A DNA stretch of 64,000 bases from an uncultured Caldilineaceae bacterium (GCA_964622215.1 CAZUNT010000009.1:2081-66080); one strand, 5' to 3'; numbered from the stretch's first letter, positions 4,044 to 38,831 are shown. Translations and numbers: made by a program. The notes: generated by a model from the letters alone, not told the origin.

Positions 4044-5585
4044 ATGTCAAAAGCTATCCATGAGGCTATGGTCAAGCAAGCCATGGCGGCGCTCAAGGCC
4101 GATGTAAACAACATCAAAGCCAAGCGGGGTACGGAATTTAAGATCACCGATGCCCAACCCTATGTTGACGCCGTTAATGGCATGAAGGCCGTTGACAATG
4201 AATTACCGGAAGTTATTGCCCTCCATGTCGACTCGGTCAACGCCCACTATGAAATCCTCAAGTCGCTGACCAAAACGGTGCGGCCTGAGGATGATCCCTT
4301 TGTCGAGCATTACCAGACCGGCCCGATTATGGAAATCCTCTATGAAGAGCAACCGGATTTCAAAGCCTCGGTCAAAAAGTTTATTGACGCCATTCCCAAG
4401 AACCGCGCCCTGGTTGGCCGCGAAGCCGCCCGGCTCTATGGCGGGCTGTATGGCCCAACCTGCGTGGTCGACTTTACCCTCAGCCCCGGCTCCACCGCCA
4501 ACGTCGTCAACCGGATTTTGCAGGGGTTAGATATTCCCAAAGATCACAAAAAGACTATTCTGGCGGCCAAATCCTTTGGTATGACCACCTCCTACGGCCT
4601 GGGCGCAGCCTTCAAAGGCTCGGTAGAAAGTGGCAAAACACTCGATCAGGCCCTCGACGACGAAATTGCCACCCTGCAGATGATCTATGATACCCCCTCT
4701 GAGGCCCAAACCAAGATTATGCTGGGCCACAACCTGGGCGGGCATGGCGGCCACAATTCCTTCGATACGGCCGAATACCAGAAGCAATACAAAGCGCGCA
4801 TGAAGCCGACCGTCAAGGCGGCCCTGGCCAAAGGCGTGCATCCGGGCAATGTCGTCTGCGTTCCGGCCTATTGTGTGGGTGACGTGGCTCACCACAACAG
4901 CCAGACCATGTTCAACTTTGCTCAAGACCCCATTGTCATGGCTATTTTTGAGGCTCACACCGAAGCCCTCGAAAGCACCCTGAAGCGCGGCCTGGATCAG
5001 GGCTTCAAGAATGAGTACGGGGTGGTCGGGCTGGCGGTTGGCACGAGTGCGGCCTTGATGGCCTATGAATTCCTGCTGGATTACATGCCGATCCCCAGCA
5101 TCATCGAGCTGCTGGTCAACCGCTTCCACAACATGGTGGCCATGAACCCCAACCGCGACTCGGCGGCCGAGCTGCACAACGTGGACCTGATGATGTCCAT
5201 CTGGCGCGGCTGGAACATCCTCAAACCCAAGCCGCTGGGCGGCGGCGGCGAAATTGACGGGGTCAAGATTGATCTCGGCCCGGTTGACAAGCACGACGTG
5301 CTGGCCAATATCCATCGCTACACCTATCCGCCCTGCGCCATCACCCAACGCGTGGGCACCATGCTCAAGTTCGCCGACTTCCCCTGCTTGCTGACCAGCG
5401 AGCCGGTCACGGCGACCCTGCTGACCCACGTCGTGGCCCAGCATCCCGAGTCGGCCTCCTTCCCGCTGCGCATTGATAAGGATTGGGGCGCGACCGAGTA
5501 CCGTTTCATCAATACCGGCCTGGGTGTCAAAGGCTTTGGCGCTGACCCCGTGGTTGGGTACGAGCAACGCGCTGCGAGCGTCTAA
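4044..5585 (+). CDS. Conserved-looking hypothetical protein (513 aa), family not recognised
   Basis: Long ORF in the native GC context with a strong SD. Soluble-looking, with no P-loop, Cys cluster or TM segment. Motifs GGHGGHNSFD and GGGGEIDG. First gene of the C1 block. Confidence 0.8.
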   Translation: MSKAIHEAMVKQAMAALKADVNNIKAKRGTEFKITDAQPYVDAVNGMKAVDNELPEVIALHVDSVNAHYEILKSLTKTVRPEDDPFVEHYQTGPIMEILYEEQPDFKASVKKFIDAIPKNRALVGREAARLYGGLYGPTCVVDFTLSPGSTANVVNRILQGLDIPKDHKKTILAAKSFGMTTSYGLGAAFKGSVESGKTLDQALDDEIATLQMIYDTPSEAQTKIMLGHNLGGHGGHNSFDTAEYQKQYKARMKPTVKAALAKGVHPGNVVCVPAYCVGDVAHHNSQTMFNFAQDPIVMAIFEAHTEALESTLKRGLDQGFKNEYGVVGLAVGTSAALMAYEFLLDYMPIPSIIELLVNRFHNMVAMNPNRDSAAELHNVDLMMSIWRGWNILKPKPLGGGGEIDGVKIDLGPVDKHDVLANIHRYTYPPCAITQRVGTMLKFADFPCLLTSEPVTATLLTHVVAQHPESASFPLRIDKDWGATEYRFINTGLGVKGFGADPVVGYEQRAASV

Positions 5586-5646: not shown

Positions 5647-5673
5647 TAGTTATGACCCAAAAAGGCGGTGCTC

Positions 5674-6531
5674 ATGAAAAAACTCTTAATCCAACTGGAC
5701 AGCGATAAACACCCCAGCTCCTTTGACCGCATCGTGCCCTACGACGCGGACGTTGACGATGTGCTCAGCTATGGTAATGTGACCGTTGAAGATGTGCCGG
5801 CGCTGGTACAGGGGGGCTTTTTCACCCGCGGCGTGCCCGACTTAAAACATACCGCGATTTGGATCGGCGGTTCTCACGTGCCAACCGGTGAGGCCCTGCT
5901 GGCAGCCGTTCGAAAATCCTTCTTTGGCCCCTTTAAACTTTCGGTGATGCTCGATTCTAACGGTTGTAACACCACTGCGGCTACGGCGGTGGCCAAGATT
6001 GTCAAGGCTCTGGATATACGCGACCAGCGGGTCGTGGTAGGAGCCGGCACCGGGCCGGTTGGGATGCGGGCGGCCGGGTTGTTGGCCGGCGAGGGCGCTA
6101 AAGTCACGCTCACCTCCCGCGCCCTGGAACGGGCCCAGGCTGCTGCCGCAACCGTCAGCGAACGTTTTGGGGTAAAGGTGGAGGGGGCAGTGCTGGCCGA
6201 CGACGCTTCGGCCCGCCAGACCCTGGAGGGCGCAGTCGCCCTGTTTACCTGCGGGACCGCAGGCGCGCAGCTAGTCAGCCAGGCCGTCTGGACCGGCATC
6301 TCCAGCCTGAAGCTGATTGCCGATATCAATGCCGTGCCGCCGCTGGGCATCGAAGGGATTGATATGAACGATAATGGGAAGGAGCGGGAAGGCCGTATTT
6401 CCTTTGGGGCGCTTGGCATCGGCGGGCGTAAAATGAAGGTGCATCGCACCTGCATCGCCAGGCTGTTTGAAGCCAACGATATTATCATGGACGCCGAGTT
6501 GGTTTATAAAGTGGCCAAGGAGTTGGTGTGA
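5674..6531 (+). CDS. mtdA: NAD(P)-dependent methylene-tetrahydromethanopterin dehydrogenase (MtdA/MtdC type)
   Basis: Collinear with my memory of M. extorquens MtdA: MKKLLIQLDSD.., FFGPFKLSVMLDSNGCNTTAATAVA, GTGPVGMRAAGLLAGEGA, FGALGIGGRKMKVHRTCIARLFE. Start set to the ATG at 5674. Confidence 0.9.
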   Translation: MKKLLIQLDSDKHPSSFDRIVPYDADVDDVLSYGNVTVEDVPALVQGGFFTRGVPDLKHTAIWIGGSHVPTGEALLAAVRKSFFGPFKLSVMLDSNGCNTTAATAVAKIVKALDIRDQRVVVGAGTGPVGMRAAGLLAGEGAKVTLTSRALERAQAAAATVSERFGVKVEGAVLADDASARQTLEGAVALFTCGTAGAQLVSQAVWTGISSLKLIADINAVPPLGIEGIDMNDNGKEREGRISFGALGIGGRKMKVHRTCIARLFEANDIIMDAELVYKVAKELV

Positions 6532-6605: not shown

Positions 6606-7754
6606 ATGAACAGCCAGGTACAGCCCATTTTACTGGCCGGATTAACCGTGCGCATGCTGGCCGAACTGGCCGTGCAGGCGGGTTACGAGGTGACAGCGCT
6701 GGATTATTTTGGCGACTTCGACCTGCAGGCGCTCTGCCCCGTCCGTTCACTGCTGCGAGATTACGGCCAGGCTTACGACGTGCCGGCCCTGGTCAATGCC
6801 GCCGGCGACATGGCTGCGCCGGCCGTAGTTTACAGCGCCAACCTGGAGAATTTCCCTGAAGCCGTAGCCCGCTTGGCCCAGGGGCGACAACTCCTCGGCA
6901 ATACCCCGGAGACGCTGGAACAGGTGCGCAATCCGCTTCGTTTGGCCGCCGCTTTGCGGGCCGGAGGCTTTGCTTTTCCCGAAACCTTCATCTCCACAGC
7001 CGGCCTTGCCCCCGACGCGGCCCGGCGCTGGCTGTGGAAACCACTCTCCAGCGGCGGTGGGCATGGTGTTCGACTCTGGCGTAATGGGCGCTCGCCGGAG
7101 GGGGGCGTGTTCCAGGAGCGCCTGGGGGGGATGGTCGGCTCGGCCTCGTTTGTGGCTGATGGCCGGCAGGCGGTTTTGCTGGGGTTGACCGAACAACTGG
7201 TGGGGCAACCTGCCTTTGGCGCTGCCGGATTTAACTATTGCGGCAATCTTGTCCCTCCTTCCATCCCGCCGGACGAACTGGCTGCCTTGCTCCGGGAGGT
7301 ACGGGCTATTGGGTCGCACCTGACCGAGATTTTTGGACTGCGCGGCCTCAACGGGGTGGATTTCATCTGGCAGGCCGGGCGCGCCTGGACCATCGAGGTC
7401 AATCCCCGGCCGTCGGCCTCGCTGGAGTTACTTGACTTGGCCTACGGGCTGCGCGTGTTCGATGCTCATGTGCGTTCGTTTAGCGACCAGTTGCCAGATT
7501 TTGACCTGGAACAAGCCCTGGTCGGTGGCGCGGCGGCAGGCAAGGCGATTGTGTATGCGCCGTATGATCTGAATGTGGGCGATACCGGCGACTGGGCTGC
7601 CCGAGGTATCCGTGATATTCCTCACCCCGGAGAGCAGATCAGCCGCCAGCAGCCGGTCTGTACCATTCTGACCACTGCCGCCTCACCCCTGGCTTGCCTG
7701 CGCCAGCTTCAAGCGCAGGCAGCCGAAATAAAGAGATGGTTCAAACGAGTGTGA
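6606..7754 (+). CDS. ATP-grasp enzyme of the H4MPT/MFR-linked set (Orf5/COG2232-like)
   Basis: 382 aa with ATP-grasp-like layout (WLWKPLSSGGGHGV, GLNGVDFI..IEVNPRP). Positioned in the C1 cluster. Confidence 0.7.
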   Translation: MNSQVQPILLAGLTVRMLAELAVQAGYEVTALDYFGDFDLQALCPVRSLLRDYGQAYDVPALVNAAGDMAAPAVVYSANLENFPEAVARLAQGRQLLGNTPETLEQVRNPLRLAAALRAGGFAFPETFISTAGLAPDAARRWLWKPLSSGGGHGVRLWRNGRSPEGGVFQERLGGMVGSASFVADGRQAVLLGLTEQLVGQPAFGAAGFNYCGNLVPPSIPPDELAALLREVRAIGSHLTEIFGLRGLNGVDFIWQAGRAWTIEVNPRPSASLELLDLAYGLRVFDAHVRSFSDQLPDFDLEQALVGGAAAGKAIVYAPYDLNVGDTGDWAARGIRDIPHPGEQISRQQPVCTILTTAASPLACLRQLQAQAAEIKRWFKRV

Positions 7755-7772: not shown

Positions 7773-7914
7773 GTTACTACTCAGGCTACCCCAAATTGAG
7801 TATTCCTGACCGCAGACCGCAGACTGCCGACCGCCATAATTCGCCCTGTACCCTGTCTTTTCGGCGGTCAGCGGTCAGCCGTCGGCGGTCGTGGGGGTAG
7901 GGCTGAGTAGTTAC
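7773..7914. mobile_element. MITE-like element, family A, with 8-bp target-site duplication
   Basis: Imperfect TIRs GTTACTACTCAG / CTGAGTAGTTAC. Arms are built of CCGACCG-type heptamers. Flanked by direct repeats ACGATTTT at 7765-7772 and 7915-7922. Confidence 0.65.
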
Positions 7915-7942
7915 ACGATTTTTACTTCTGGGGCTGTTTTTT

Positions 7943-7971
7943 TTGGTTTTTATCAATATAGCGTTTATAAT
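7943..7971 (+). promoter_or_regulatory. Candidate sigma70-type promoter for fwdD
   Basis: TTGGTT (7943-7948), 17-nt spacer, TATAAT (7966-7971), in an AT-rich stretch. Confidence 0.35.
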
Positions 7972-8038
7972 TTTTAATAATAAATATCACCCACCCGCAG
8001 AGTATACAATCAATCAATTCATAGCCATCGCTCACAGA

Positions 8039-8114
8039 CACCCGGTTTTTCACTTGAGGGATCGTCTCTTTGCCCAGAGAAGTGCTATGAGACCCGAAAA
8101 ACTGGGTGTTTTTT
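8039..8114 (+). terminator. Terminator-like structure inside the fwdD leader (possible attenuator or riboswitch expression platform)
   Basis: CACCCGGTTTTT (8039-8050) pairs with AAAAACTGGGTG (8097-8108) and is followed by TTTTTT (8109-8114). The SD AAGGAGG at 8120-8126 and the ATG at 8133 lie downstream. Confidence 0.3.
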
Positions 8115-8132
8115 GTTGCAAGGAGGTAAGCT

Positions 8133-8474
8133 ATGGCCGAAACAATGACCCTGATTGCCGGTCGCTCAAGCAAGCAGGGTGCCAGTCTGAATGTCAGCAA
8201 ACTGGAAGGCGAGTACGCTGAGATTACGACCACCGTGGAAATGAATGTCGACGATATGGCTCGCCTGGGGCTAAAAGAGGGCGACAGCGTGCGGTTGTGT
8301 TCGGCTACGGGCGAGACGATCGTCCGTTGCAAAGGACGCAAGGCCGAGGATTTACCCGCCGGAGTATTATTCCTGGCCTATGGCCCCGCGTCGAGTCAAC
8401 TGATGAGCAGCGACACCGCCGGTACCGGTATGCCGATTTCGAAGAACCTGGATGTCGAAGTTGAGCCGCTTTAA
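8133..8474 (+). CDS. fwdD: Formylmethanofuran dehydrogenase subunit D (molybdopterin dinucleotide-binding beta-barrel)
   Basis: 113 aa, LIAGRSSKQG...VEMNVDDMARLGLKEGDSVRL...GVLFLAYGP. Typical FwdD/FmdD size and motifs. Confidence 0.8.
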   Translation: MAETMTLIAGRSSKQGASLNVSKLEGEYAEITTTVEMNVDDMARLGLKEGDSVRLCSATGETIVRCKGRKAEDLPAGVLFLAYGPASSQLMSSDTAGTGMPISKNLDVEVEPL

Positions 8475-8482
8475 AAAACGTA

Positions 8483-8602
8483 GGATAAGCTAACAGTTTG
8501 CCTTACTTACTAATCTTACGCAGGAGTCCAGACTTTAGTCTGGGAAAACCCGAATAAATTCGGGACTCCTACTAGAGAAACTGTGTAACGTGAGTTACTT
8601 AT
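8483..8602. repeat. Multi-hairpin repeat related to the core of the MITE at 18087-18206
   Basis: AGGAGTCC..hairpin CCAGACTTTAGTCTGG..hairpin CCCGAATAAATTCGGG..GGACTCCT. The core is collinear with GGAGTGC...GCGGAATGAATTCCGC..GCACTCC at 18122-18184. Confidence 0.45.
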
Positions 8603-8623
8603 AAATTTTGGAGGATAAACCTG

Positions 8624-8836
8624 ATGAGTTGGATTGATATCGGCGACTGGGCCGAGGCAATGAGCTTAAAACTGGAACAACAGCGGCGCGAACGGCTAAA
8701 AGTAGCCGCCAAACATTTTGGGCTGGATGTGCTGGACATCCTGGGCGACAAGGAACTCGAACAGCAGGTGCTGGCCCGCTACGAAGCCGCCGGCCTGCCC
8801 TGGCCCGTTTTGGATGAAGAAGAGGAAGACGAATAG
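8624..8836 (+). CDS. Small acidic hypothetical protein (70 aa) between fwdD and fwdB
   Basis: GGAGGA SD 8 nt upstream of the ATG. C-terminal EEEEDE tail. No family recognised. Confidence 0.5.
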   Translation: MSWIDIGDWAEAMSLKLEQQRRERLKVAAKHFGLDVLDILGDKELEQQVLARYEAAGLPWPVLDEEEEDE

Positions 8837-8913
8837 TGATTAGTAAACAGTAAACAGTAAACAGTAATCAGTAATCAGTAATACTAATTACTGATCACTG
8901 ATTACTGATTACT
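8837..8913. repeat. Heptamer tandem-repeat palindrome (STRR-like)
   Basis: (GTAAACA)x3-(GTAATCA)x2 ... (TGATTAC/TGATCAC) arms form a long hairpin. Followed by ATTTTTTGAGGAG and the fwdB ATG. Confidence 0.8.
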
Positions 8914-8931
8914 ATTTTTTGAGGAGAATCA

Positions 8932-10275
8932 ATGAGTGACAATATTCGTATTATCGAAAATGCAACCTGTACCTTCTGCGGCTGTGTTTGCGATGATATG
9001 GTCCTGACCGTAGACTTGGACCAAAAGCGCATCACCAAGACCAAAAATGCCTGTGTGTTGGGCAAAGCCTGGTTTAGCGAACATGTCGTGGAAAATCGCC
9101 CTTTTGCCCTGATTGACGGTAAGGAAGCCACCACGGCCGAAGCCGTCGAGTCGGCGGCGCAAATCCTGGCCCAGGCCTGTTATCCGGCGATTTATGGTTT
9201 GAGCGATACCACCTGCGAGGCTCAGCGCCAGGCCGTCGCCATTGCCGATATGCTCGGCGCAAATATCGGCACCACCAGCGAGGTGTGTCACGGGCCGTCG
9301 GGGATTGCCTTCCAGGGCGTCGGCGAGAGTACGGCTACGCTGGGCGAAATTAGAAACCGGGCCGACTTGGTCATCTTCTGGGGCAGTAACCCGGCTGAGT
9401 CCCACCCCCGCCACTTTGCCAGGTACTCGGTCACGCCCAAGGGCATGTTCGTTCCCAACGGCAAGAAAGACCGCACCGTTGTGCTGGTGGACGTGCGCCG
9501 CACCCCCAGCGCGCCGGTGGCCGACATCTTTATCCAGGTGAAACCGCGCCGGGATTTTGAATTGCTGTGGGCTTTGCGCGCCCTGGTCAAGGGCCAGCGG
9601 GTTGATCCCTCCGTGGAGGAGCTGACCGGCGTTTCCCTGGCCGCGATGCAGGATTTGGTCGAGCGCATGAAGAAGTGCCGGTATGGAGTGTTGTTCTTTG
9701 GGATGGGCCTGACCATGACTCGAGGCCGGCATTTTAACACGGGGGCGCTGATGTCCCTGGGCACCGATCTAAACGAATTTACCCATTTTGTGGTCAAACC
9801 GATGCGCGGCCACGGCAACGTCACCGGGGCCGATAATGTCGTCGCCTGGCAGACGGGGTTTCCCTTTGCCGTCAATTTCAGCCGAGGTTATCCCCGTTTT
9901 AACCCAGGTGAGTTTTCTGCGGTTGACCTGCTGGCGCGAGGTGAAGCCGATGCGCTGCTGGTCATTGCCAGCGACCCGGCCTCCAATTTTGCGCAGGGGG
10001 CCATCGACGCGATGCACCGTATCCCGGTCATCGTGCTCGATCCCAAATTTACCCATACCGCCCGGTTGGCTCGCGTCGCTTTTACCACCGCTACCTACGG
10101 TATCAACGTAGCCGGTACGGCCTATCGGATGGACGATGTGCCCATCACCCTCCGTCCCGCCTTCGAGTCCCCCTACCCCAGCGATGAGGAAGTGCTCACG
10201 GCCATCAGGAAGCGGCTGCAAGAACTGTTGAAGGATAGACCGGTCCAGGTCATGCCGCCGGTGGGGGGGGCGTAA
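8932..10275 (+). CDS. fwdB: Formylmethanofuran dehydrogenase subunit B (molybdo/tungstopterin subunit family)
   Basis: N-terminal CTFCGCVCDD...NAC Fe-S-like cysteine pattern, a TSEVCHGPSG (Cys-His) motif, and IFWGSNPAESHPRH. 447 aa. Confidence 0.85.
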   Translation: MSDNIRIIENATCTFCGCVCDDMVLTVDLDQKRITKTKNACVLGKAWFSEHVVENRPFALIDGKEATTAEAVESAAQILAQACYPAIYGLSDTTCEAQRQAVAIADMLGANIGTTSEVCHGPSGIAFQGVGESTATLGEIRNRADLVIFWGSNPAESHPRHFARYSVTPKGMFVPNGKKDRTVVLVDVRRTPSAPVADIFIQVKPRRDFELLWALRALVKGQRVDPSVEELTGVSLAAMQDLVERMKKCRYGVLFFGMGLTMTRGRHFNTGALMSLGTDLNEFTHFVVKPMRGHGNVTGADNVVAWQTGFPFAVNFSRGYPRFNPGEFSAVDLLARGEADALLVIASDPASNFAQGAIDAMHRIPVIVLDPKFTHTARLARVAFTTATYGINVAGTAYRMDDVPITLRPAFESPYPSDEEVLTAIRKRLQELLKDRPVQVMPPVGGA

Positions 10276-10504
10276 GGTTCAAGACCGCCGACCGCCGACG
10301 GCCGACCGCCGTTAAGGAAATCATGGCGGTGATAGCAGAGTGGTTTTGGGCGATGCCGGGCGAAGCTGTATAAAAAACGTTGAGGGGGTCTTAAGGAGAA
10401 ATATGCCTCATAAGGCCCCTTTTGGAGAGGGAGAAGAATTCCATAAAAGTTCCATAGACTCACAAGTTGGGCGGACTCGTTGCAAATGAAAGTAGGGTAA
10501 TCTA

Positions 10505-11686
10505 ATGAAACATTTGCTAATTGCGACTATTGCTGGACTTGCACTTGTAATGGTGACTGGTGGCATTCTTGTAGCACTAGCAAGTAGCCCTCTATATCAG
10601 ACAACAGCAATGAAAAATATAATACCTCTGACATCTTCCTGTGATAAGGGTCCAATTAATCCTCCTGATTTGGCAACCGGTAACTTGGAGGAAGATGCCA
10701 AGGATTGGGGTGTCTTCTGTGATTTGGGGACGCCGACATGGGTCTTAACAGATGTTACAACACCGGCACTTGACGGCAAATCACTTCGTTGCTCAATTAC
10801 CGGAGGTCAACCCAATTCTCATGTGCATTGCTATAGAAACTTACTATCAGAACCAGCAGCGAGTGTTTTTGTACTGACCATGCCCTTTTATTTTACCCCT
10901 GCAACAACATGTAACAACCAAGGGGAATCTTCCATAATCCAAGCACTTGAATTCACCATGAGCAAGTGGCATCAGGGTCAACGCTATGAGTTTGCCGTTC
11001 AATGGGAAAATGTTGCCGAGACTCCTGGGGATGGCGCTCCTCAGTGGCGCTATTGGAATTCCTCTCAATGGGTGCCTTTCAACCCCAAAATCACCCAATG
11101 CCTAGCAGCAGGACAGTGGTACACCCTTACGTTGGAAGGGGAGATTGTTAATAGTCAAGTGCATTACCACAGATTTGCTATTACTAATACGAATCATATT
11201 CTTGATTTGACAGTTCCTCCCATTCCTGACTCAGCGCATGATGATGGCCTAGCGATTGCCGTTCAACTGGATGGAAATTTCCAAGAGGATGCTTATGATG
11301 TATTTGTTGATCGAGTAAGCTTCGTGAGAAAGCCCGCTCTAAGCGTGACCAAACAAGCTAACCCCAGTCCAGTGCAGGATGGAGCACAACTGAAATACAC
11401 TATCCATGTCACTAATAATACGAATGTGACTCTCACTGCTACTGTAACAGACATCTTGCCAAGCTATGTCGCACCTAGCGAAGTCCTTGTTTGGACGCCG
11501 ACTATCACTGCACCCGGTGGCGTCTGGACACAACAGACTATCGTCACTGTTGAGACGGGTTTTACAGGATCACTGACCAACAAGGTTCAAGCCACGACTG
11601 GGGGAGGCGTTATAGATACAGCTAGTGTCACAGTCTGTGCCAATTATTGTCTTACATATCTTCCAATAATTCTAAAGAATTCATGA
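10505..11686 (+). CDS. Membrane-anchored/secreted protein with a C-terminal DUF11-like repeat domain
   Basis: N-terminal TM helix. C-terminal LKYTIHVTNNTNVTLTATVTDILP is a DUF11-type motif. The gene is AT-richer than its neighbours. Confidence 0.6.
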   Translation: MKHLLIATIAGLALVMVTGGILVALASSPLYQTTAMKNIIPLTSSCDKGPINPPDLATGNLEEDAKDWGVFCDLGTPTWVLTDVTTPALDGKSLRCSITGGQPNSHVHCYRNLLSEPAASVFVLTMPFYFTPATTCNNQGESSIIQALEFTMSKWHQGQRYEFAVQWENVAETPGDGAPQWRYWNSSQWVPFNPKITQCLAAGQWYTLTLEGEIVNSQVHYHRFAITNTNHILDLTVPPIPDSAHDDGLAIAVQLDGNFQEDAYDVFVDRVSFVRKPALSVTKQANPSPVQDGAQLKYTIHVTNNTNVTLTATVTDILPSYVAPSEVLVWTPTITAPGGVWTQQTIVTVETGFTGSLTNKVQATTGGGVIDTASVTVCANYCLTYLPIILKNS

Positions 11687-11882
11687 TGATAAAAATGTGA
11701 GTATCAAATCAACCCAAGGTCCGCCCACCGGCTTGCACCCGACTGCCTACCAGCCGGTTTATCAACCACACTTTGCCAGCGAAAATGCCTTTGATTGGGA
11801 TGAGGCTTGCTGGCCCGGCAGTAGGTGAAGTCGAAGCGTTGGGTGGATGAGAATGACGAACAACATTATGATGAAATGAGAT

Positions 11883-12530
11883 ATGGAAAATCAAATCGTT
11901 ACTCGACAAATCATAGAAAAGTGTATTTTATGTCTAGTAAATGAATTCTTACAAGAACCATTTACTTTTTTTAATGAAGCAGAAGCCGTAACTCGATTTC
12001 ATAAGCTACTCATTGGCGAACAAAGTTTTAGTCGTTCAGTAAAAACCCAAGATGGTCACGAGATTAGTCAAATTCACCTGGAATACCCAACACCTTTTGC
12101 AAAAGAAGACTCATCAAAACGCCAAGAGGCGTATGGTAAATATGACGTTACTATTCTAAATCCTGAATATATTAAAAATAATCAAGTTGATGATGTAGCA
12201 AAGCCTGATCTAAAATCCAGACGAGACAACGAGCCAAAACCATTTATAGCAACAATTGAGTTGAAGTTACACTATGAGTCATTGGGTAAAAATCGTGCGG
12301 ATGATATTGTGGCCGCTTTACTCAAACTAGATTTAAGTCAAAAATACACAGAATTTCGATATTTGATATGTTTGCAAAGATATCTTGATAGAAATTTAAA
12401 TAAGTGGAACGAAAATTGGCCTATAGTTGAAAAAGCGCAGAGTAAGTATGATATATCTAGCATAATAGGAATATATTGGCGACGGTTTCCGGAAAATAAA
12501 CCGAAAATTTATTTTGGAAAGTGGTTGTAA
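11883..12530 (+). CDS. Hypothetical protein, possible PD-(D/E)xK nuclease fold
   Basis: AT-rich ORF of 215 aa. YDVTIL ... IELK spacing is compatible with a D...ExK motif. This is weak evidence. Confidence 0.45.
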   Translation: MENQIVTRQIIEKCILCLVNEFLQEPFTFFNEAEAVTRFHKLLIGEQSFSRSVKTQDGHEISQIHLEYPTPFAKEDSSKRQEAYGKYDVTILNPEYIKNNQVDDVAKPDLKSRRDNEPKPFIATIELKLHYESLGKNRADDIVAALLKLDLSQKYTEFRYLICLQRYLDRNLNKWNENWPIVEKAQSKYDISSIIGIYWRRFPENKPKIYFGKWL

Positions 12531-12779
12531 ACACAAAAAGGTTCATAAGTAGCGACGTTGCATGCAACGTCGCTACAAAATTAGACAATATTCGGCATAT
12601 TACCGAGAATTGGATAACCGTTGAAAATTAGCGAGAAAGCCGGCGCTGTTATGCAAGCTCGATGATTGAAATCATCGGCTGATACAGGAAGTGCGTTCAA
12701 AACGCACTAGACGGCTGTATTTCAACCCGTTTCAACGGGTTTTCCATTACCAGCGGGGCGTTTCAACGCTTCGCTCCAA

Positions 12780-12876
12780 GGCCGGTAAGTTTACAGTACC
12801 GCCATAATAATGTATTCGGAAACCCATTTTTAAGGCTGATTCGTAGTGAAGTAGAAGCGCTGGTAGATGAAAAGAC
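12780..12876 (+). pseudogene. Decayed fragment duplicating codons about 38-70 of the 13261-13611 gene
   Basis: About 90% identical by eye to 13375-13470 (…AAGTTACAGTACCGCC…GGAAACCC…TTTTTAAGGCTGATTCG…GAAGTAGAA…CTGGTAGATGAAAAG), with a 1-nt indel and an in-frame stop. Confidence 0.7.
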
Positions 12877-12903
12877 CTAATGTCTGATGTGAAAAGACAA
12901 TTT

Positions 12904-13098
12904 GGACCACGAAAACTTCGGCACTGGGTTCACTTAATGAGAAACAGAAAAATGGAACACAGAGAACACGGAGAAGTCACAGAGTTCACAAAGAATCTCT
13001 GAGTTCTCTGTGTCTTCTTTGTGTTCTCTGTGTTAAAATCTTAAAATTCCATTGAGCGACCCCAGTACTTCGAAATAGCGCGAAAAATGTCGTGGTCC
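12904..13098. repeat. CACAGAG/CACGGAG-heptamer hairpin element (same core as 20133-20296)
   Basis: The core ACACGGAGAAGTCACAGAGTT is shared with 20183-20203. The outer stem is GGACCACG/CGTGGTCC. Confidence 0.6.
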
Positions 13099-13260
13099 CA
13101 AAGATGTTGGGCATTTCCAATACATCTTAAGGACCGAGGCTGAATCCGTCGGTCACGCAAGCGAGAGCGAAGCCCTAATGGGCTGGATTCTTAGCTCGCA
13201 GAGCTTCGCCCTCTCAGCGCGGCGGCTTCAGCCCCGCGCTATAATCGAGGAGTAGATTCG

Positions 13261-13611
13261 ATGTACCCTGGCGAAGCAGATTCTATTTGGACCAAAAAAG
13301 GGGCTACGCTGAGTGACAAATCGGCTCGAAAAGAGTTTGGGTTGACCCAAGAAGAAATTATTGAGGGAATCAGGGCCGGCAAGTTACAGTACCGCCAGAA
13401 TAATGTGTTCGGAAACCCCTTTTTAAGGCTGATTCGCAGTGAAGTAGAATCGCTGGTAGATGAAAAGTATGGAAATAACTACCTTAAGCAGAAAAAACTC
13501 AAGCAGGAGTTAACCCAGGTCAATGCAGAACTAAAGCGATTGAAAGCTCAAGTAGCCTCCCTGGAACAGAGAAAAGCTGAGTTACTGGCTAGTTTTAATG
13601 AAAATGTCTGA
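13261..13611 (+). CDS. Small protein with an excisionase/MerR-like HTH-type N-terminal half and a C-terminal coiled coil
   Basis: LTQEEIIEGIRAGKLQY...LRLIRSEVESLV resembles Xis-type wHTH. The C-terminus KQELTQVNAELKRLKAQVASLEQRKAELL is a heptad coiled coil. Confidence 0.5.
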   Translation: MYPGEADSIWTKKGATLSDKSARKEFGLTQEEIIEGIRAGKLQYRQNNVFGNPFLRLIRSEVESLVDEKYGNNYLKQKKLKQELTQVNAELKRLKAQVASLEQRKAELLASFNENV

Positions 13612-13658
13612 GGCGTTACTTTCATCGGCAAGAACCATGGGGGAGGAAGGAAAATAAC

Positions 13659-14354
13659 ATGCCTGTCTTTCATCGTGAGCGGCACCGGACCCAGCACATC
13701 GGCTGGCTGCGTGCCGCCGTTTTGGGCGCAAACGACGGTATCGTCTCCACCGCCAGTCTGGTGGTCGGGGTGGCTGCGTCAAATTCTACCCACAATGCAG
13801 TGCTGGTGGCCGGTGTTGCCGGTTTGGTGGCCGGCGCCATGTCTATGGCGGCGGGCGAGTATGTTTCGGTCAGCTCGCAGTCGGATACCGAACAGGCGGA
13901 TCTCGAGCGGGAGCGAACGGAACTTGCGACCGATAAAGATAACGAGAAAAAAGAGCTGGCCGCCATCTACGTTGAACGGGGACTTGAAGCCGGGCTTGCC
14001 CAACAAGTCGCTGAACAATTCATGACCAGGGATGCGCTGGCCGCCCATGCCCGGGATGAACTCGGCATCTCCGAAACGATCACCGCCCGGCCTGTTCAGG
14101 CCGCGCTGACATCCGCTGCAACGTTTGCCGTTGGCGCTGCCCTCCCTCTACTTGTCGTCATCGTTGCGCCTGCCGCTAACCTGGGGCTGTTTGTGGCCGG
14201 AACTTCGCTCTTCTTTCTCGCCCTGCTGGGAGCACTAGCGGCTTATACCGGCGGGGCGCGCATCCTCGTCGGCACGGCCCGGGTCACCTTCTGGGGCGCT
14301 CTGGCTATGGCCCTGACGGCCGGCGTAGGCGCTTTGTTTGGAACGACGGTGTGA
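13659..14354 (+). CDS. VIT1/CCC1-family iron/manganese transporter
   Basis: [37 protein letters not shown] plus C-terminal TM helices are typical of the VIT family. Confidence 0.8.
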
Positions 14355-14454
14355 AAACGCTTACAGGGAAGGTTACCAGATAAATTATAACTTTTTATCC
14401 TCACGCTGGGATGCGGCCCGGAAGCCGCAACCTATGGAAAGGCAGGGTGACTGT

Positions 14455-16101
14455 ATGACAGCAACATTTCGGATTGTCAACGGTCGGGTGTATGACCCGA
14501 TCAACGGCATAGACGGCGAGGTGCGCGACGTGTGTGTGCAGGACGGCAAAATCGTCGAGAGCGTGCCACCGGAGGCCAAACGGATTGACGCCACAGGCAT
14601 GGTGGTCATGCCCGGTGGGGTGGATATTCACTGTCACATCGCCGGCCCCAAAGTCAACATGGCCCGCAAGTTGCAGCCCGAAGATCACCGCTTCGACGTT
14701 CAGCCACGCACGGCCTTCACTCGTTCCGGTACGGGCGGCACGGTGCCATCCACCTTCGCCACCGGTTATCGTTATGCGGCCATGGGCTATACTACGGCTA
14801 TGGAAGCTGCCGTCCCTCCCCTGGGGGCGCGCCACACCCTGGAAGAATTGCACGATACGCCCATCATTGATAAAGGCTTCTACGTCCTCATGGGTAATAA
14901 TGTGCTGCTCTACCGGCTGCTCAAAGAGGGCCGCTATGAAGAGTTCCGCGAGGCCGTAGCCTGGTGGCTGAATGCCAGCCGGGCCTATACCATCAAGCTG
15001 GTCAACCCCGGCGGTGACGAACCCTGGAAGGGGCAGCGTAACGCCAACATCACCAATCTGGGCGAAGAAATTGACGCCTTTGGCTTTACCCCGCGCCAGA
15101 TCATCAAGGCCCTCATCGATGCGGCCGACGATCTGGGTTTGCCCCACCCGGCCCACATTCACTGCAACAATCTGGGCCTGGCCGGCAACTCCGATACGAC
15201 CCTGGAAACTATGCGCGCCGCCGACGGCCGCCGCGCCCACCTGACCCATATTCAGTTTCATTCCTACGGGGGCGAGTTTGGCCGCAAACCGACCTCCAAG
15301 GCCGCCGAGATTGCCGAATACATCAACACTCACCCGGAGATTAGCGCCGATGTCGGCCAGGTGATGTTTGGCAAAGCCACCGGCATGACCGCCGATGCAC
15401 CGCTGGGTTGGATGCTGCGCCGGATCAGCGGCAACAAGTGGGTTAATGCCGACACCGAACACGAGAGCGGCTGCGGTATCGTCCCCTTTGCCTACAGCGA
15501 TAAAAATTATGTCCATTCCTTGCAATGGGGTATCGGGCTGGAGTTATTACTGCTAACCAAAGACCCCTGGCGTATGATCCTGTCCACCGACCATCCCAAC
15601 GGCGGCTCTTTTATGAGTTATCCCAAACTGATTCGTCTGCTGATGGATCGCCAGTTTCGGGCTGAGCAGGTCCGCTCGGTCAACCAAAAGGCGATGGAGC
15701 AAACCGTCTTGTTGGATGGCCTGGAGCGTGAGTACACTCTGCGAGAGATCGCCATCATCACCCGCGCCGGCCCGGCCAAACTGCTGGGGCTGCGGCACAA
15801 AGGCCACCTGGGTGTCGGCGCTGATGCGGATATTACCATCTACATGGAGCAGGACGACAAAGAGGAAATGTTCAGCACTCCACGCTACGTGTTCAAAAAC
15901 GGCCAGATCATCATCGAAGGCGGCGAATTTCGAGCTGACTGCGATGGACGAATTCTGCATGTAGCACCCGACTACGACCCCAAAATCGAGCAGATCATCC
16001 GGCCTTTCTTCGAGGACTACTACTCCATCCAGTTTGAGAACTACGCCGTCAGTGAAAAATATCTACATCAGCATCAAGTGACGCCAACGGCTAATCAGTG
16101 A
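14455..16101 (+). CDS. fwdA: Formylmethanofuran dehydrogenase subunit A (amidohydrolase)
   Basis: [15 protein letters not shown]..., [13 protein letters not shown] (HxH), [17 protein letters not shown]. Start moved to the ATG at 14455, giving 548 aa. Confidence 0.9.
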
Positions 16102-16108
16102 GTGAACT

Positions 16109-16168
16109 GGTTGAAGGTTAAAGGTCAAAGGTTTCTAACGGACAACATTCAACCTTTAACCTGAAACC
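16109..16168. repeat. Heptamer tandem-repeat palindrome (STRR-like)
   Basis: GGTTGAA GGTTAAA GGTCAAA ... TTCAACC TTTAACC TGAAACC, followed by CTATTTTTGAGGAG and the ftr ATG. Confidence 0.75.
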
Positions 16169-16194
16169 TACAACTATTTTTGAGGAGCAGGGCT

Positions 16195-17100
16195 ATGTAT
16201 ATCCAAAATACCGAAATTGTTGATACCTTTGCCGAAGCTTTCAAGATGTGGGCAGCGCGGGTCATCATCACCGCCGAGACACCCCAGTGGGCGATGAACG
16301 CGGCCCTGTCGATGACCGGCTTCGCCACTTCGATTATTGGCTGCAAGTGCGAGGCCGGGATCGAGGCGGAACTGCCGCCCGCCGAAACATTGGATGGACG
16401 CCCCGGCGTAAGCGTGCTGTTTTTTACGGTTAAAGCCGACGATATGGGTAAGCGCCTGTTAGAGCGGGTGGGCCAGTGCGTGCTGACCTGTCCGACTACG
16501 GCCTGTTTTGATGGACTACCGGCCGAACAAAGCGTTGTCGTCGGTGGGCAGTTGCGCTTTTTTGGCGATGGCTACCAGATCAGCAAGGTCTTGGAGGGCC
16601 GGCGTTTCTGGCGTATCCCGGTCATGGAGGGCGAGTTTTTGGTTGACGAGCGCTTTGGGGTCCAGCCGGCCATTGGCGGCGGCAATATTCTGATTCTAGG
16701 CCGGAATGTGACTGCCACCTTGCACGCGACCGAGGCGGCTGCGGCGGCGATGCGGACCGTGCCCGGCGTCATTTTGCCCTTCCCCGGCGGGATCGTCCGC
16801 AGTGGCAGCAAGACACGCTCTCGCTACAAGGGGTTGTTCGCCTCCACTAACGACGCCTTCTGTCCCACCCTGCGCGGCTTTGCCATCGAAACCCAGGTGC
16901 CGCCTGAGGCGGGCTGCGTGCTGGAAATTGTGATTGATGGGCTAGATCTGCCGGCGGTCGAGGAGGCCACGCGGCGGGGTATGATTGCGGCGGCTGAAAC
17001 GGGCGATGCCTTGCAAATATCGGCCGGTAACTACGGCGGAACACTGGGCCAGTATCAAATCAAGCTGCACAGTGTGTTAGATGGAGTTAGTGTTCAGTAA
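16195..17100 (+). CDS. ftr: Formylmethanofuran:tetrahydromethanopterin N-formyltransferase
   Basis: MYIQNTEIVDTFAEAFKMWAARVIITA...SMTGFATSIIGC is typical of Ftr/FhcD. 301 aa from the ATG at 16195 (GAGGAG SD). Confidence 0.9.
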   Translation: MYIQNTEIVDTFAEAFKMWAARVIITAETPQWAMNAALSMTGFATSIIGCKCEAGIEAELPPAETLDGRPGVSVLFFTVKADDMGKRLLERVGQCVLTCPTTACFDGLPAEQSVVVGGQLRFFGDGYQISKVLEGRRFWRIPVMEGEFLVDERFGVQPAIGGGNILILGRNVTATLHATEAAAAAMRTVPGVILPFPGGIVRSGSKTRSRYKGLFASTNDAFCPTLRGFAIETQVPPEAGCVLEIVIDGLDLPAVEEATRRGMIAAAETGDALQISAGNYGGTLGQYQIKLHSVLDGVSVQ

Positions 17101-17224
17101 TCAGTGATTAGTAAACAGTAAACAGTAAACAGTAAACAGTAATCAGTGTTTACTGTTCACTGTTCACTGCTAACTGTTCACTGTTCACTGTTCACTGTTC
17201 ACTGTTCACTGTTCACTGCTAACT
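17101..17224. repeat. Heptamer tandem-repeat palindrome (STRR-like), 124 bp
   Basis: (GTAAACA)x4 on the left arm and (TGTTCAC)x9 or so on the right arm. It fills the whole ftr-fwdC spacer. Confidence 0.85.
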
Positions 17225-17236
17225 GTGAGGAATCCT

Positions 17237-18055
17237 ATGAGCATCACTTTAACTTTACAAACCGACTTGACGGCGCCGTTAGAGGCCGAAGTTATTACAC
17301 CCAACCGGCTGGCGGGCCTGAACCAGGCCGGGATTGCGGCCCTGCCGGTTCAACATGGTAATCAAAAAGCAGCCCTGGGTGATTTTTTCCGGGTGACTGG
17401 GTCTAGCAATGGCGAGATACGGGTGGAAGGTGACCTGAGCCGGGTTAAGCTGATTGGCGCGGGCATGACCCGGGGACGAATCGTGGTTGCCGGTAATGTA
17501 GGCATGCATGTCGGCGCGGGCATGCGGGGCGGCGAAATTGCGGTTGAAGGCAACGCCGGCGACTGGGCCGGAGCCGAGATGGTGGGCGGCCGGCTGGAAA
17601 TCAAGGGCCATGCCGGTCACCTGGTCGGCAGCGGCTACCGGGGCAGCGCCAGCGGCATGCAGGGGGGTGAAATTATCGTGTTTGGCAACGCGGGTAACGA
17701 GGTTGGCGGAGCCATGCGGCGCGGACTGATTGCCATTGGCGGCGATAGCGGCGATTTTACCGGTGTGAATGTGTTGGCCGGTACAATCATCGTTTTGGGC
17801 CGGCTTGGTTGGCGTAGCGGCGCGGGTATGAAACGCGGCTCAATTATCTCGATGCACGATGCTCCCATTCTGCCCACCTATACTTTTGCCTGCACCTACC
17901 GGCCTACGTTTCTGCCCATCTATCTCCGGCGGCTCCGCTCGCTGGGCCTACCGATTGACGATCGGCAGATCACCGGTTATTACCGGCGTTGGAGCGGCGA
18001 CTCGGTCGAACTGAACCGGGGAGAGATATTGCTGTATACGACCGCCGACCGGTAA
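17237..18055 (+). CDS. fwdC: Formylmethanofuran dehydrogenase subunit C (beta-helix)
   Basis: Repeated G-x-x-G-x-x-M-x-G-G turns (VAGNVGMHVGAGMRGGEIAVEGNAGDWAGAEMVGGRLEIKGHAG). 272 aa from the ATG at 17237. Confidence 0.9.
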   Translation: MSITLTLQTDLTAPLEAEVITPNRLAGLNQAGIAALPVQHGNQKAALGDFFRVTGSSNGEIRVEGDLSRVKLIGAGMTRGRIVVAGNVGMHVGAGMRGGEIAVEGNAGDWAGAEMVGGRLEIKGHAGHLVGSGYRGSASGMQGGEIIVFGNAGNEVGGAMRRGLIAIGGDSGDFTGVNVLAGTIIVLGRLGWRSGAGMKRGSIISMHDAPILPTYTFACTYRPTFLPIYLRRLRSLGLPIDDRQITGYYRRWSGDSVELNRGEILLYTTADR

Positions 18056-18086
18056 CCGCCGACCGCCGGAAAGTGTATGATTTACC

Positions 18087-18206
18087 GAGTATTTCCCACT
18101 TAGTAGCGTAAGTAAGGTCGCCGGAGTGCAGAATTTACGCTGTGCGTACCGGTAGCCTAAAAGCGGAATGAATTCCGCACTCCTCCACGTTAGATGGGAA
18201 ATACTC
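18087..18206. mobile_element. MITE-like element with perfect 12-bp TIRs and an 8-bp target-site duplication
   Basis: TIRs GAGTATTTCCCA (18087-18098) / TGGGAAATACTC (18195-18206). Direct repeats GATTTACC at 18079-18086 and 18207-18214. Internal GCGGAATGAATTCCGC hairpin. Confidence 0.75.
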
Positions 18207-18214
18207 GATTTACC

Positions 18215-18236
18215 TGTTTACTGTCTACTGTCTACT
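18215..18236. repeat. Short heptamer tandem repeat
   Basis: TGTTTAC TGTCTAC TGTCTAC T, followed by ATTTTTTGGGGAGG and the mch ATG. Confidence 0.6.
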
Positions 18237-18258
18237 ATTTTTTGGGGAGGTTTAAGCA

Positions 18259-19212
18259 ATGGCGCTTTCACTCAATGAACAGGCGTTGATGTTGGCTGAG
18301 GAATTGATCGCCAGAGCCGAGGCGTTGGGCGTGATGGTGCATATCCTGCCGAACGGGACTCGGGTGATCGACTGCGGCATAGACACACCGGGCGGGTTAG
18401 AAGCCGGGCGTTTCTTTGCCGAGGTCTGCATGGGCGGCTTGGGCCGGCTTTCTTTCACCCACCTGGCGCTGGACGGCTGGTGGCTGCCCGCCGTAACCGT
18501 TCACACCGATCAGCCGATGGTGGCTTGTATGGCCGCCCAGTACGCCGGTTGGCAAGTCAATAAGGATAACTACTTTGCCATGGGCAGCGGCCCGGCCCGT
18601 GCTCTGATCCGCGCTGAAGAAAAACTTTACGACGAATTGGCTTACAGCGACCCGGCCCGCGTGGCCGTGTTGTGCCTGGAAGGCCGCACTATCCCGCCGC
18701 CCGAAATTGCCGGCTACATCGCCGAGCGGGCCAAGGTGCCGCCGGAGCACCTGACCCTGTTGATTGCGCCGACGGCCAGCGTGGTCGGCGGTGTTCAGGT
18801 GGCGGCGCGGGTGGTAGAGACCGGCTTGCATAAGCTGCACGAGCTGGGCTTTGACCTGCGCCAGGTCCAGAGCGGCCTGGGAACCTGCCCTCTGCCGCCG
18901 GTGGCCAAAAGCGATATCCGAGCTATAGGCCGCACCAACGACGCCATCCTTTACGCCGGCCAGGTGCATTACACCGTCCGGGCCGACGACGCCGAGCTGG
19001 AGCAAGTGGTCTCTCGTGTGCCGGCCTCAACCTCGCGGGATTACGGTGCGCCCTTCTACGATACCTTTAAGGGTTACAAATACGATTTCTACCAGGTTGA
19101 CCCGCTGCTGTTCAGCCCGGCCGAAATCTTTATGACCAATGTGGTCAGCGGGCACACCTTCCATGCCGGACAAGTGAATGTGGATGTCTTAAAACAGTCG
19201 TTCCTGGAGTAG
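18259..19212 (+). CDS. mch: Methenyltetrahydromethanopterin cyclohydrolase
   Basis: LNEQALMLAEELIARAEALGV..LPNGTRVIDCGIDTPGGLEAG and the 317-aa length match Mch. Confidence 0.9.
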   Translation: MALSLNEQALMLAEELIARAEALGVMVHILPNGTRVIDCGIDTPGGLEAGRFFAEVCMGGLGRLSFTHLALDGWWLPAVTVHTDQPMVACMAAQYAGWQVNKDNYFAMGSGPARALIRAEEKLYDELAYSDPARVAVLCLEGRTIPPPEIAGYIAERAKVPPEHLTLLIAPTASVVGGVQVAARVVETGLHKLHELGFDLRQVQSGLGTCPLPPVAKSDIRAIGRTNDAILYAGQVHYTVRADDAELEQVVSRVPASTSRDYGAPFYDTFKGYKYDFYQVDPLLFSPAEIFMTNVVSGHTFHAGQVNVDVLKQSFLE

Positions 19213-19216
19213 GACT

Positions 19217-20128
19217 TTGAAGGTCGCTATTTTGGGAGCTAACCCCGGCTGGCATGCCGAACAGTTACAGCAAGCACTTCAGGCCCGGGGGCACGAGTCT
19301 ACCCTGCTGCCGATTAACCAAATGGCGGCCCGGGTGGCTCTGACCCCTCGCCTCGGCAGCCTGAGCGCGGACCTGGACGCTTTTGATGTGGTCTTGGTAC
19401 GTTTTATCCCTCGCGGTTCGTTAGAGCAGATTATCTTCCGTATGGATGCGCTGCACTTGCTCGAAAGCCGAGGGATGCGGGTGGTTAACCGGCCCAAAGC
19501 CATCGAACGTACGGTGGATAAGCTCTATACCTCGGGCTTACTCGATCAAGCCGGCCTGCCCACCCCCCGCACCGTCGCCTGCGAAACCAGCGACGATGCC
19601 CTAAAGGCATTCACTGCCCTGGGCGGCGATGTGGTAGTCAAACCATTGTTTGGGGCGATGGGCCTGGGCATCGTCCGGGTGGAAGAGCGGGATGTGGCCT
19701 ATCGGGTGTTCAGGGCGTTGGAATTGGAACGAGCCGTTTACTACTTGCAGGAAACCATCGCCCACAACGGCTGCGATATTCGTGCCTTTATCATTGGCGG
19801 GCGGGTGGTGGCGGCCATGGAGCGGGTCTCGGACGATTGGCGCACCAACGTGGCTCGCGGCGCGTTGACTCGCCCCTGCCGTCTGACGGCCGCGCAGGAG
19901 GAGCTATGCCTGCGGGCTGCCGAGGTGGTTGGGACCGACTATGCCGGGGTAGACTTACTGCCGGCTGTCGATGGCCGGCTTTATATTATCGAGGTGAACA
20001 GTATCCCCGGCTGGAAGGGACTGCAAACGACCAGCCCGGTTAATATTGCCGAGGAGATGGCGATTTACCTTGAAACCGTAGCTAACCAGCCCTTTATAGC
20101 TGACCAGAGGAGTTTTTGCCGGGATTAG
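19217..20128 (+). CDS. mptN: RimK-type ATP-grasp ligase (H4MPT:alpha-L-glutamate ligase MptN-like)
   Basis: MKVAILGANPGWH..., VVKPLFGAMGLGI, YIIEVNSIPGW. TTG start 4 nt after the mch stop. Confidence 0.75.
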   Translation: MKVAILGANPGWHAEQLQQALQARGHESTLLPINQMAARVALTPRLGSLSADLDAFDVVLVRFIPRGSLEQIIFRMDALHLLESRGMRVVNRPKAIERTVDKLYTSGLLDQAGLPTPRTVACETSDDALKAFTALGGDVVVKPLFGAMGLGIVRVEERDVAYRVFRALELERAVYYLQETIAHNGCDIRAFIIGGRVVAAMERVSDDWRTNVARGALTRPCRLTAAQEELCLRAAEVVGTDYAGVDLLPAVDGRLYIIEVNSIPGWKGLQTTSPVNIAEEMAIYLETVANQPFIADQRSFCRD

Positions 20129-38785: not shown

Positions 38786-38831
38786 TTTATCACTATTCCT
38801 TCAAAACCACTCATCAGGGGTTTGTTTTTTA

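Follow-up and report, generated by a model that had tools for sequence, protein, structure and literature searches.

What reaction does the formyl-methanofuran (formyl-MFR) module of an uncultured Caldilineaceae bacterium catalyze? The module lies at 8133-19212 of a 64,000-nt stretch of DNA, referred to here as the window, and encodes homologues of FwdA, FwdB, FwdC and FwdD together with the formyltransferase Ftr. The original prediction assigned it to the redox-type Fwd enzymes rather than to the hydrolytic Fhc complex of methylotrophs. At the sequence level, FwdD, the catalytic Cys/His/Arg residues and the N-terminal iron-sulfur (FeS) motif of FwdB bear this assignment out; the gene order and the C-terminal tail of FwdC do not, being Fhc-like. 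We conclude that the window probably encodes a bacterial formyltransferase/formyl-MFR dehydrogenase made up of FwdD, FwdB, FwdA, Ftr and FwdC, most likely assembled as one complex. Sequence comparison also identifies the module as an Anaerolineae member of a widespread, genomically recognised bacterial class, and its architecture is far from unique.

The reference points for this question are the archaeal Fwd/Fmd enzymes (M. wolfeii 5T5I; 8RJA, 9SFI, 9SW6 and 7BKB) and the Fhc complex of M. extorquens (6S6Y), which according to Hemmann et al. is the sole enzyme of bacteria known to use methylofuran (MYFR) (PMC6926001). The FhcB subunit of M. extorquens has Ser62 in place of Cys118, does not conserve His119 and Arg288 and is missing the N-terminal FeS domain, and the Fhc complex has no FwdD (PMC6926001), in agreement with what the original prediction said of Fhc. 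Like the archaeal enzymes, and unlike Fhc, in which all of these features are lost, the window has a FwdD next to FwdA, FwdB and FwdC, and its FwdB keeps the N-terminal [4Fe-4S] cysteines and the equivalents of Cys118, His119 and Arg288. Unlike the archaeal systems, it has neither an FwdF/FwdG polyferredoxin nor FwdE, its ftr gene is embedded in the cluster, the tail of its FwdC resembles that of FhcC, and the host is bacterial, lacks methanogenesis genes and has an Mtd of the NAD(P) type; the oxidative direction is to be expected.

The catalytic subunit FwdB and the FwdD cap

The open reading frames (ORFs) of the window were searched against Pfam, NCBIfam/TIGR and PDB chains. FwdB scores 505 bits against TIGR03129 (cut-off 328) and matches the PDB chains 9sfi_Q, 8rja_B and 5t5i_B with an E-value of ~1e-112. 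Five archaeal FwdB/FmdB chains match it at E 1e-97 to 1e-112, and M. extorquens FhcB (6s6y_B) matches it at just 2e-14, over the C-terminal half. When aligned with three solved archaeal FwdB/FmdB chains, window FwdB shows 39-45% identity to them; its nearest relatives, at 86-89% identity, come from metagenome-assembled genomes (MAGs) of Anaerolineae/Chloroflexota.

Residue correspondence was read from a MAFFT alignment with the archaeal chains. C13, C16, C20 and C41 of window FwdB share columns with the archaeal [4Fe-4S] cysteines, which do not vary among the archaeal chains, the window motif CTFCGCVCDD...NAC aligning column for column with archaeal CPFCGTLCDD...NAC, so that the N-terminal four-Cys pattern noted in the original prediction is upheld. 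The VCHGPS motif, which had been likened to the Cys/Sec-His active-site pair (Sec, selenocysteine), belongs to a TSEVCHGPS segment that aligns with archaeal TASVCHGPS. Here, C119-H120 occupies the columns of M. wolfeii Cys118-His119, R292 occupies that of Arg288, and the Sec enzyme 9sfi_Q has X in the catalytic Cys column. Thus, in the alignment with archaeal FwdB and FhcB that had been put forward as a check, the Cys-His pair and the Arg all stand at the catalytic columns.

As a proxy for the residues that contact the molybdopterin guanine dinucleotide (MGD), we used the 109 columns in which four archaeal enzymes show no variation. Window FwdB retains 78 of the 109, and the corresponding numbers are 73-86 in bacterial Fwd-type proteins and 36-51 in the degenerate paralogues described below. 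Twenty positions are common to archaeal and bacterial Fwd-type FwdB and lost in the Fhc-type paralogues; they include C119/H120/G121/P122, D187/R189 (VDxR) and R292/H294/N296/V297/G299 (RGHxNVxG).

The second component of a redox-type enzyme is a separate FwdD-like beta-barrel, which had been predicted at 8133-8474. The gene is preceded by a strong ribosome-binding site, AGGAGG, and its product exceeds the gathering score of Pfam Molydop_binding (PF01568; 6e-11). The match to the NCBIfam FwdD model (1.4e-20) has a score of 73.7 and is thus below the archaeal cut-off of 175, and the best PDB matches are FwdD chains (2ki8, 8rja_D and 5t5i_D; 3e-14 to 2e-12). The ratio of nonsynonymous to synonymous substitution rates (dN/dS) is ~0.05 against the FwdD of the Anaerolineae MAG L081, which indicates strong purifying selection. 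By homology, FwdD is the equivalent of domain IV of formate-dehydrogenase-type enzymes and the predicted cap for a bis-pterin cofactor.

Redox-type and degenerate sets in other bacteria

Is this signature peculiar to the window? A scan of species genomes, with one genome per species, returned at least 588 relatives, and the best 80 (L001-L080) were fetched with their flanks. These 80 belong to the Gamma-, Alpha- and Betaproteobacteria (among them upland-soil-cluster gamma (USC-gamma), Methylococcales and Methylothermaceae), Gemmatimonadota, Planctomycetota, Methylomirabilota/Rokubacteria and Actinomycetota, and their FwdB proteins, none of them from Anaerolineae, are 63-78% identical to Anaerolineae FwdB. 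Eight residues were checked in FwdB, namely C13, C16, C20, C41, C119, H120, R292 and H294, and all eight are invariant in 80/80 homologues from at least five phyla, where the signature is identical to that of the window. A fwdD homologue stands beside fwdB in 73 of the 80 loci, and the commonest gene order is fwdD-fwdB-fwdA-ftr-fwdC, with fwdB adjoining fwdA in most.

Nineteen of the 80 loci have a second set nearby, B'-A'-ftr'-C' without fwdD, usually in tandem a few kb downstream (L007, L011, L013, L017, L019, L020, L024-L027, L032, L033, L039, L040, L044, L049, L059, L063 and L068); such pairing is found in many proteobacterial and Gemmatimonadota genomes. The B' subunits are only 25-33% identical to window FwdB, and all 19 have lost the Cys, His and Arg. 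The N-terminal four-Cys motif is still present in most of them (14-15/19), unlike in M. extorquens FhcB, where the N-terminal FeS domain is wholly absent (PMC6926001). For the Fhc-type B' of L024, archaeal FwdB is still a better-scoring match than M. extorquens FhcB; the closest PDB match therefore fails to separate the two classes, which are separated by the residue signature and FwdD. The invariance of the residues in 80/80 FwdB proteins, against 0/19 in co-resident paralogues, argues that window FwdB is selected for a redox function. As far as sequences can tell, the relaxed paralogues in the same genomes serve as an internal control that argues for selection on the redox signature.

This control bears on the possibility that FwdB and FwdD persist as a scaffold or relic that binds no pterin, so that the complex would be hydrolytic and Fhc-like and formate would be oxidised by a separate formate dehydrogenase. 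Such a view can draw on the hydrolytic activity of the sole characterised bacterial homologue (PMC6926001), on the lack of cofactor-biosynthesis genes and of an electron partner in the window and on the kinship with Fhc that the tail of FwdC and the order of the genes indicate. However, the eight FeS/catalytic residues are invariant in 80/80 redox-type homologues across phyla, whereas the truly relaxed paralogues of the same genomes lack the Cys, His and Arg in 19/19 cases; the low dN/dS of FwdD and the retention of the 20 redox-type-specific positions likewise oppose a relic. Furthermore, genomes with the Fhc-type set keep the redox-type set too, which argues for a distinct function of the latter. 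We consider the relic unlikely.

Bacterial genes of this kind have been noticed before. Wells et al. listed 149 bacterial FwdB homologues and proposed a transfer from archaea to bacteria (PMC10100899), and annotation pipelines already name these genes fwdB and fwdD. Chistoserdova reported that fwdD has homologues in Synergistetes, Firmicutes and NC10 and none in Planctomycetes or Proteobacteria (PMC5020050); given that tblastn places fwdD, at 41-73% identity to the window protein, beside fwdB in most MAGs labelled Planctomycetes or Proteobacteria, the latter statement, from 2016, is outdated. Merino et al. (2020) described an fwdDBA-ftr-fwdC operon in Actinobacteria of the Hakuba serpentinite, with the FeS domain and Cys118 in FwdB and without fwdE/F/G (PMC7325909). 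The Hakuba operon has the same gene order as the window, and the 80 relatives include one locus from Actinomycetota (L055). Unlike it, the window adds an Anaerolineae-specific small ORF, a DUF2193 gene, a VIT1 gene and a cargo insertion, and lies inside a full H4MPT/MFR island (H4MPT, tetrahydromethanopterin), whereas the Hakuba genome reportedly has no H4MPT biosynthesis genes and a Wood-Ljungdahl context (PMC7325909). In the literature searched, to which Adam et al. 2019 did not belong, we found no report of the co-residence of redox-type and Fhc-type sets in one genome, of an FhcC-like FwdC tail or of the linkage of ferredoxin and FprA genes to fwdC that is described below.

Gene layout and Fhc-like features

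The genes of the H4MPT/MFR cluster all lie on the + strand, where the original prediction had placed them, and Pfam and NCBIfam matches confirm that mtd, ftr, mch and fwdA/B/C are encoded in the window. The features are as follows.

4044-5585, + strand: DUF2193 protein, first gene of the cluster, conserved in Anaerolineae (Pfam DUF2193, 2e-193)
5668-6531, + strand: mtd, methylene-H4MPT dehydrogenase (Pfam Mpt_N, 4e-27, plus an NAD(P)-binding domain)
6606-7754, + strand: ATP-grasp gene
8133-8474, + strand: fwdD, molybdopterin-dinucleotide-binding beta-barrel of 113 amino acids (aa) (Pfam PF01568, NCBIfam FwdD, PDB FwdD chains)
8624-8836, + strand: acidic small ORF of 70 aa between fwdD and fwdB (gene called in the Anaerolineae MAGs L081 and L083)
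8932-10275, + strand: fwdB, predicted Mo/W-bis-pterin-type catalytic subunit of 447 aa (TIGR03129, PDB, alignment)
10276-13658, + strand: variable low-GC cargo of ~3.4 kb, not part of the enzyme, which splits fwdB from VIT1-fwdA; it holds a DUF11-like ORF (10505-11686) and ORFs at 11883-12530 and 13261-13611 (GC 45-48%)
13659-14354, + strand: VIT1-family Fe/Mn transporter (Pfam VIT1, 3e-67)
14338 (ORF opening; probable ATG 14455) to 16101, + strand: fwdA, amidohydrolase for formyl-MFR hydrolysis/condensation (TIGR03121, 727 bits)
16180-17100, + strand: ftr, formyl-MFR:H4MPT formyltransferase (Pfam FTR and FTR_C; NCBIfam, 426 bits)
17225-18055, + strand: fwdC, beta-helix GXGXG subunit (TIGR03122, 274 bits)
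18259-19212, + strand: mch, methenyl-H4MPT cyclohydrolase (Pfam MCH, 3e-130)
19217-20128, + strand: MptN-like ligase

Further downstream lie genes for H4MPT and methanofuran biosynthesis (CitG-like, HPPK-MptA, MfnF-like, MfnE-like, MfnB, dihydropteroate-synthase-like, DUF447 and beta-RFAP synthase). The fwd module is inside a full island of H4MPT/MFR biosynthesis and oxidation, and shares with Fhc the context of bacterial H4MPT/MFR formaldehyde oxidation with the biosynthesis genes nearby.

The stretch 8133-19212 is not one contiguous operon, the cargo and the VIT1 gene standing between fwdB and fwdA. The same layout is found in L081 and L083: BTAD/TPR regulator, DUF2193, mtd, ATP-grasp, fwdD, small ORF and fwdB, then a variable cargo slot, VIT1, which precedes fwdA in each of the three Anaerolineae loci, and fwdA, ftr, fwdC and mch. 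The contents of the slot differ in all three genomes. The slot of the window (10276-13658) holds the DUF11-like protein and two ORFs without assigned function, that of L081 (11348-13952) a PMT_2 glycosyltransferase and that of L083 (11345-15818) DUF3592, an esterase, an OCD-family protein and a methyltransferase. The small ORF has a counterpart of 69/70 aa in L081 and L083, with 76-78% amino-acid identity between genomes, a dN/dS of 0.16-0.23 and an acidic tail; it has no Pfam match and no tblastn match in the 80 non-Anaerolineae loci, from which DUF2193 is absent as well. This Anaerolineae-specific protein may be an accessory subunit or an assembly factor.

Do the two gene blocks encode two enzymes? 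FwdB and FwdD could form a free-standing small formate dehydrogenase with the 70-aa protein, leaving FwdA-Ftr-FwdC as a hydrolase without a B subunit. A gap of at least 3.4 kb with differing cargo separates fwdB from VIT1-fwdA in 3/3 Anaerolineae loci, and a lineage-specific small ORF sits inside the fwdD-fwdB pair, as such a division would have it. However, fwdD-B-A-ftr-C is contiguous in most of the 80 other loci, whose FwdB is 63-78% identical to that of Anaerolineae, and in both solved complexes A and C are joined through the B subunit (PMC6926001). A split into two enzymes is very improbable in our judgement.

The FwdA-Ftr-FwdC block is where the module resembles Fhc. FwdA, read from the ATG at 14455, has 548 aa, the same length as in L081. 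Archaeal FwdA PDB chains match it at 1e-157 to 1e-125 (420-529 bits) and FhcA at 8e-118, and the metal-site positions H-x-H, K, H, H and D are identical to those of archaeal FwdA in the alignments. The gene order is fwdB...fwdA-ftr-fwdC, with ftr between fwdA and fwdC, like fhcD in fhcBADC, so that in the window as in Fhc the formyltransferase gene lies within a B-A-ftr(D)-C cluster. In FwdC, archaeal chains align just up to residue ~208-224, that is, over the beta-helix, and M. extorquens FhcC aligns across residues 8-270. The sole PDB match of the last 77 aa is 6s6y_C (FhcC) at 194-262, the region that docks FhcD. This match is suggestive of an FhcC-like C-terminal tail on FwdC, and no more than suggestive because its E-value, 1.4e-4, is modest.

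By its sequence features, the module is a hybrid that combines redox-type FwdB and FwdD with an Fhc-like gene order and an FhcC-like FwdC tail. The most economical reading of these features is a single complex in which Ftr would be docked as in Fhc and the dehydrogenase site of FwdB and FwdD would be retained. Hemmann et al. proposed a trajectory from archaeal Fwd to methylotroph Fhc in which loss of the dehydrogenase (step 1) is followed by association of the formyltransferase (step 2) (PMC6926001).

Several neighbouring features were considered separately. The DUF2193 protein, for which no PDB relative was found, was tried as an FeS electron partner. M. voltae DUF2193 binds [4Fe-4S] via a C-terminal CX2CX6DX2(H/C)X2C motif (PMC12375889); the Pfam match of the window protein ends at profile position 481 of 498, before this motif, and the tail contains neither the motif nor a CxxC, leaving the candidate unsupported. 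The ORF at 30881-31645 (- strand), which is MobA-like in Pfam, was rejected as an MGD-synthesis gene, with NCBIfam giving 263 bits for the GlmU N-terminal uridylyltransferase versus 34 for MobA; its adjoining phosphoglucosamine/phosphomannomutase-type gene also counts against MobA. An Rfam scan of the whole window, which would cover a molybdenum or tungsten cofactor (Moco/Wco) riboswitch preceding fwdD or fwdB, returned nothing at gathering thresholds.

Tandem-heptamer hairpins occur between genes at 7808-7891, 8842-8913, 10283-10311, 16109-16133, 17095-17226, 18039-18068 and 61326-61409. In one, AGTAAAC x5.7 faces TACTGAT x4.6 with 36-nt arms that are 86% complementary; in another, CAGTAAA x7.6 faces TCACTGT x12. 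We take them to resemble the short tandemly repeated repetitive (STRR) heptamer repeats of cyanobacteria. Elsewhere, a nonribosomal peptide synthetase (NRPS) cluster spans 37825-51961 (- strand), with a starter module containing Formyl_trans_N (48272-51961), a TubC-docking condensation-adenylation-thiolation (C-A-T) module (43362-48275), a further C-A-T module that ends in a reductase (38832-43298) and a phosphopantetheinyl transferase (37825-38472). Its flanking genes encode a HEAT/cNMP-binding protein and an adenylate-cyclase/AAA protein.

Proposed reaction, electron route and significance

How would a formyltransferase/formyl-MFR dehydrogenase of this composition work? In the scheme that we favour, Mtd and Mch would convert methylene-H4MPT to formyl-H4MPT, and Ftr would transfer the formyl group to methanofuran. 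FwdA, as a binuclear-metal amidohydrolase, would then hydrolyze formyl-MFR to formate, which would be kept in the complex, not released as in Fhc, and whose oxidation to CO2 would take place at a bis-pterin centre with Mo or W. This centre would be held between FwdB and the FwdD cap, with Cys119 as the ligand and His120 and Arg292 assisting. FwdB would pass the electrons through its N-terminal [4Fe-4S] cluster to a soluble acceptor that is not encoded in the window. We infer the cofactor occupancy, the complex formation, the channelling of formate, the oxidative direction and the electron acceptor.

The relatives suggest what the acceptor may be. ORF clustering of the 80 loci reveals two conserved extra genes directly after fwdC. 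One encodes a two-cluster ferredoxin of ~101 aa that has a DUF3470 tail (e.g. L032 14967-15272), and the other a ~459-aa protein with a full-length match to M. tuberculosis FprA and adrenodoxin reductase (1lqt_A, 3e-109; e.g. L023 15257-16636). Of the 46 loci in which at least 2.2 kb of sequence follow fwdC, the ferredoxin is present in 27 and the reductase in 29, and in L012 the ferredoxin/FprA pair lies directly upstream of fwdD (7880-9580). This linkage suggests a route from the [4Fe-4S] cluster of FwdB through ferredoxin and FprA to NADP+ in the carrier organisms, many of them proteobacterial, where the acceptor would probably be the two-cluster ferredoxin, re-oxidised by the FprA-type NADP+ reductase. 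By standard redox potentials, such a route fits the oxidative direction.

The potentials matter because the enzyme could also run in reverse, fixing CO2 into formyl-MFR and feeding an H4MPT-dependent Wood-Ljungdahl-like or C1-assimilation route. The enzyme family is reversible, its closest solved relatives are reductive in methanogens, and Merino et al. weighed such roles for the similar actinobacterial operon (PMC7325909). However, Mer, CODH/ACS (CO dehydrogenase/acetyl-CoA synthase), hydrogenase, Hdr and polyferredoxin are all absent from the window. The neighbouring Mtd is of the Mpt_N/NAD(P)-binding type, which we take to belong to the bacterial oxidative pathway. Furthermore, the partner linked to the module in the relatives is an NADPH:ferredoxin reductase. 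The redox potential of NADPH is about -320 mV and that of CO2/formyl-MFR about -530 mV, so that this reductase would be unable to drive CO2 reduction without bifurcation. A reductive role thus appears quite unlikely to us.

A number of observations weigh against an active dehydrogenase complex in the window. The ferredoxin-type motif CxxCxxCxxxC[P/G] occurs 0 times in the six frames of the 64 kb, which rules out FwdF/G there, as the original prediction had noted. Many of the 80 loci add the ferredoxin and FprA-type reductase and/or a tandem Fhc-type set, unlike the window, which has neither, and the ferredoxin and FprA of the relatives have no homologue in the window or within 10 kb on either side of the L081 and L083 loci. 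Neither Moco/Wco biosynthesis genes nor mod/tup transporters are present in the 64-kb window. In Anaerolineae, the variable cargo between fwdDB and fwdA-ftr-fwdC means that co-expression is not guaranteed. The AlphaFold2 model of FwdB, built from an alignment of 31 sequences at an identity of at least 74%, has a mean predicted local distance difference test (pLDDT) score of 60.6, with active-site segments below 50, and is too poor for the pterin pocket or a formate tunnel. In addition, no biochemical characterisation of a bacterial redox-type member was found in the literature.

With these points weighed, we tentatively propose, at somewhat short of an even chance, that FwdD-B-A-Ftr-C is a single complex with the architecture of Fhc, including the docked formyltransferase, and a working Mo/W site, and that it converts formyl-H4MPT to CO2 without free formate. 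It would be a living intermediate between Fwd and Fhc, and its Anaerolineae version would use another acceptor and the 70-aa subunit instead of ferredoxin and FprA. If so, step 2 of the trajectory of Hemmann et al., the association of the formyltransferase, is already present in this class and step 1, the loss of the dehydrogenase, has not yet occurred.

In the textbook account of bacterial methylotrophy, the H4MPT/methanofuran route ends in the hydrolytic release of formate by Fhc. If the redox-type enzyme is active, many bacteria would instead use a pterin enzyme for the direct oxidation of the formyl group to CO2, among them Anaerolineae, upland-soil-cluster gamma methanotrophs, Methylococcales, Planctomycetes, Gemmatimonadota and Methylomirabilota. 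Their electron yield would then come as ferredoxin or NADPH and not via a separate formate dehydrogenase, their trace-metal demand for Mo or W would change, and models of carbon flux would be affected, formate being a branch point for assimilation. Routine annotation labels both types 'fwdABC(D)' with no distinction, and the residue signature together with the presence of FwdD would let annotation tell the redox type from the Fhc type. An active member of this class would also offer an experimentally accessible intermediate for the evolution of Fhc from Fwd.

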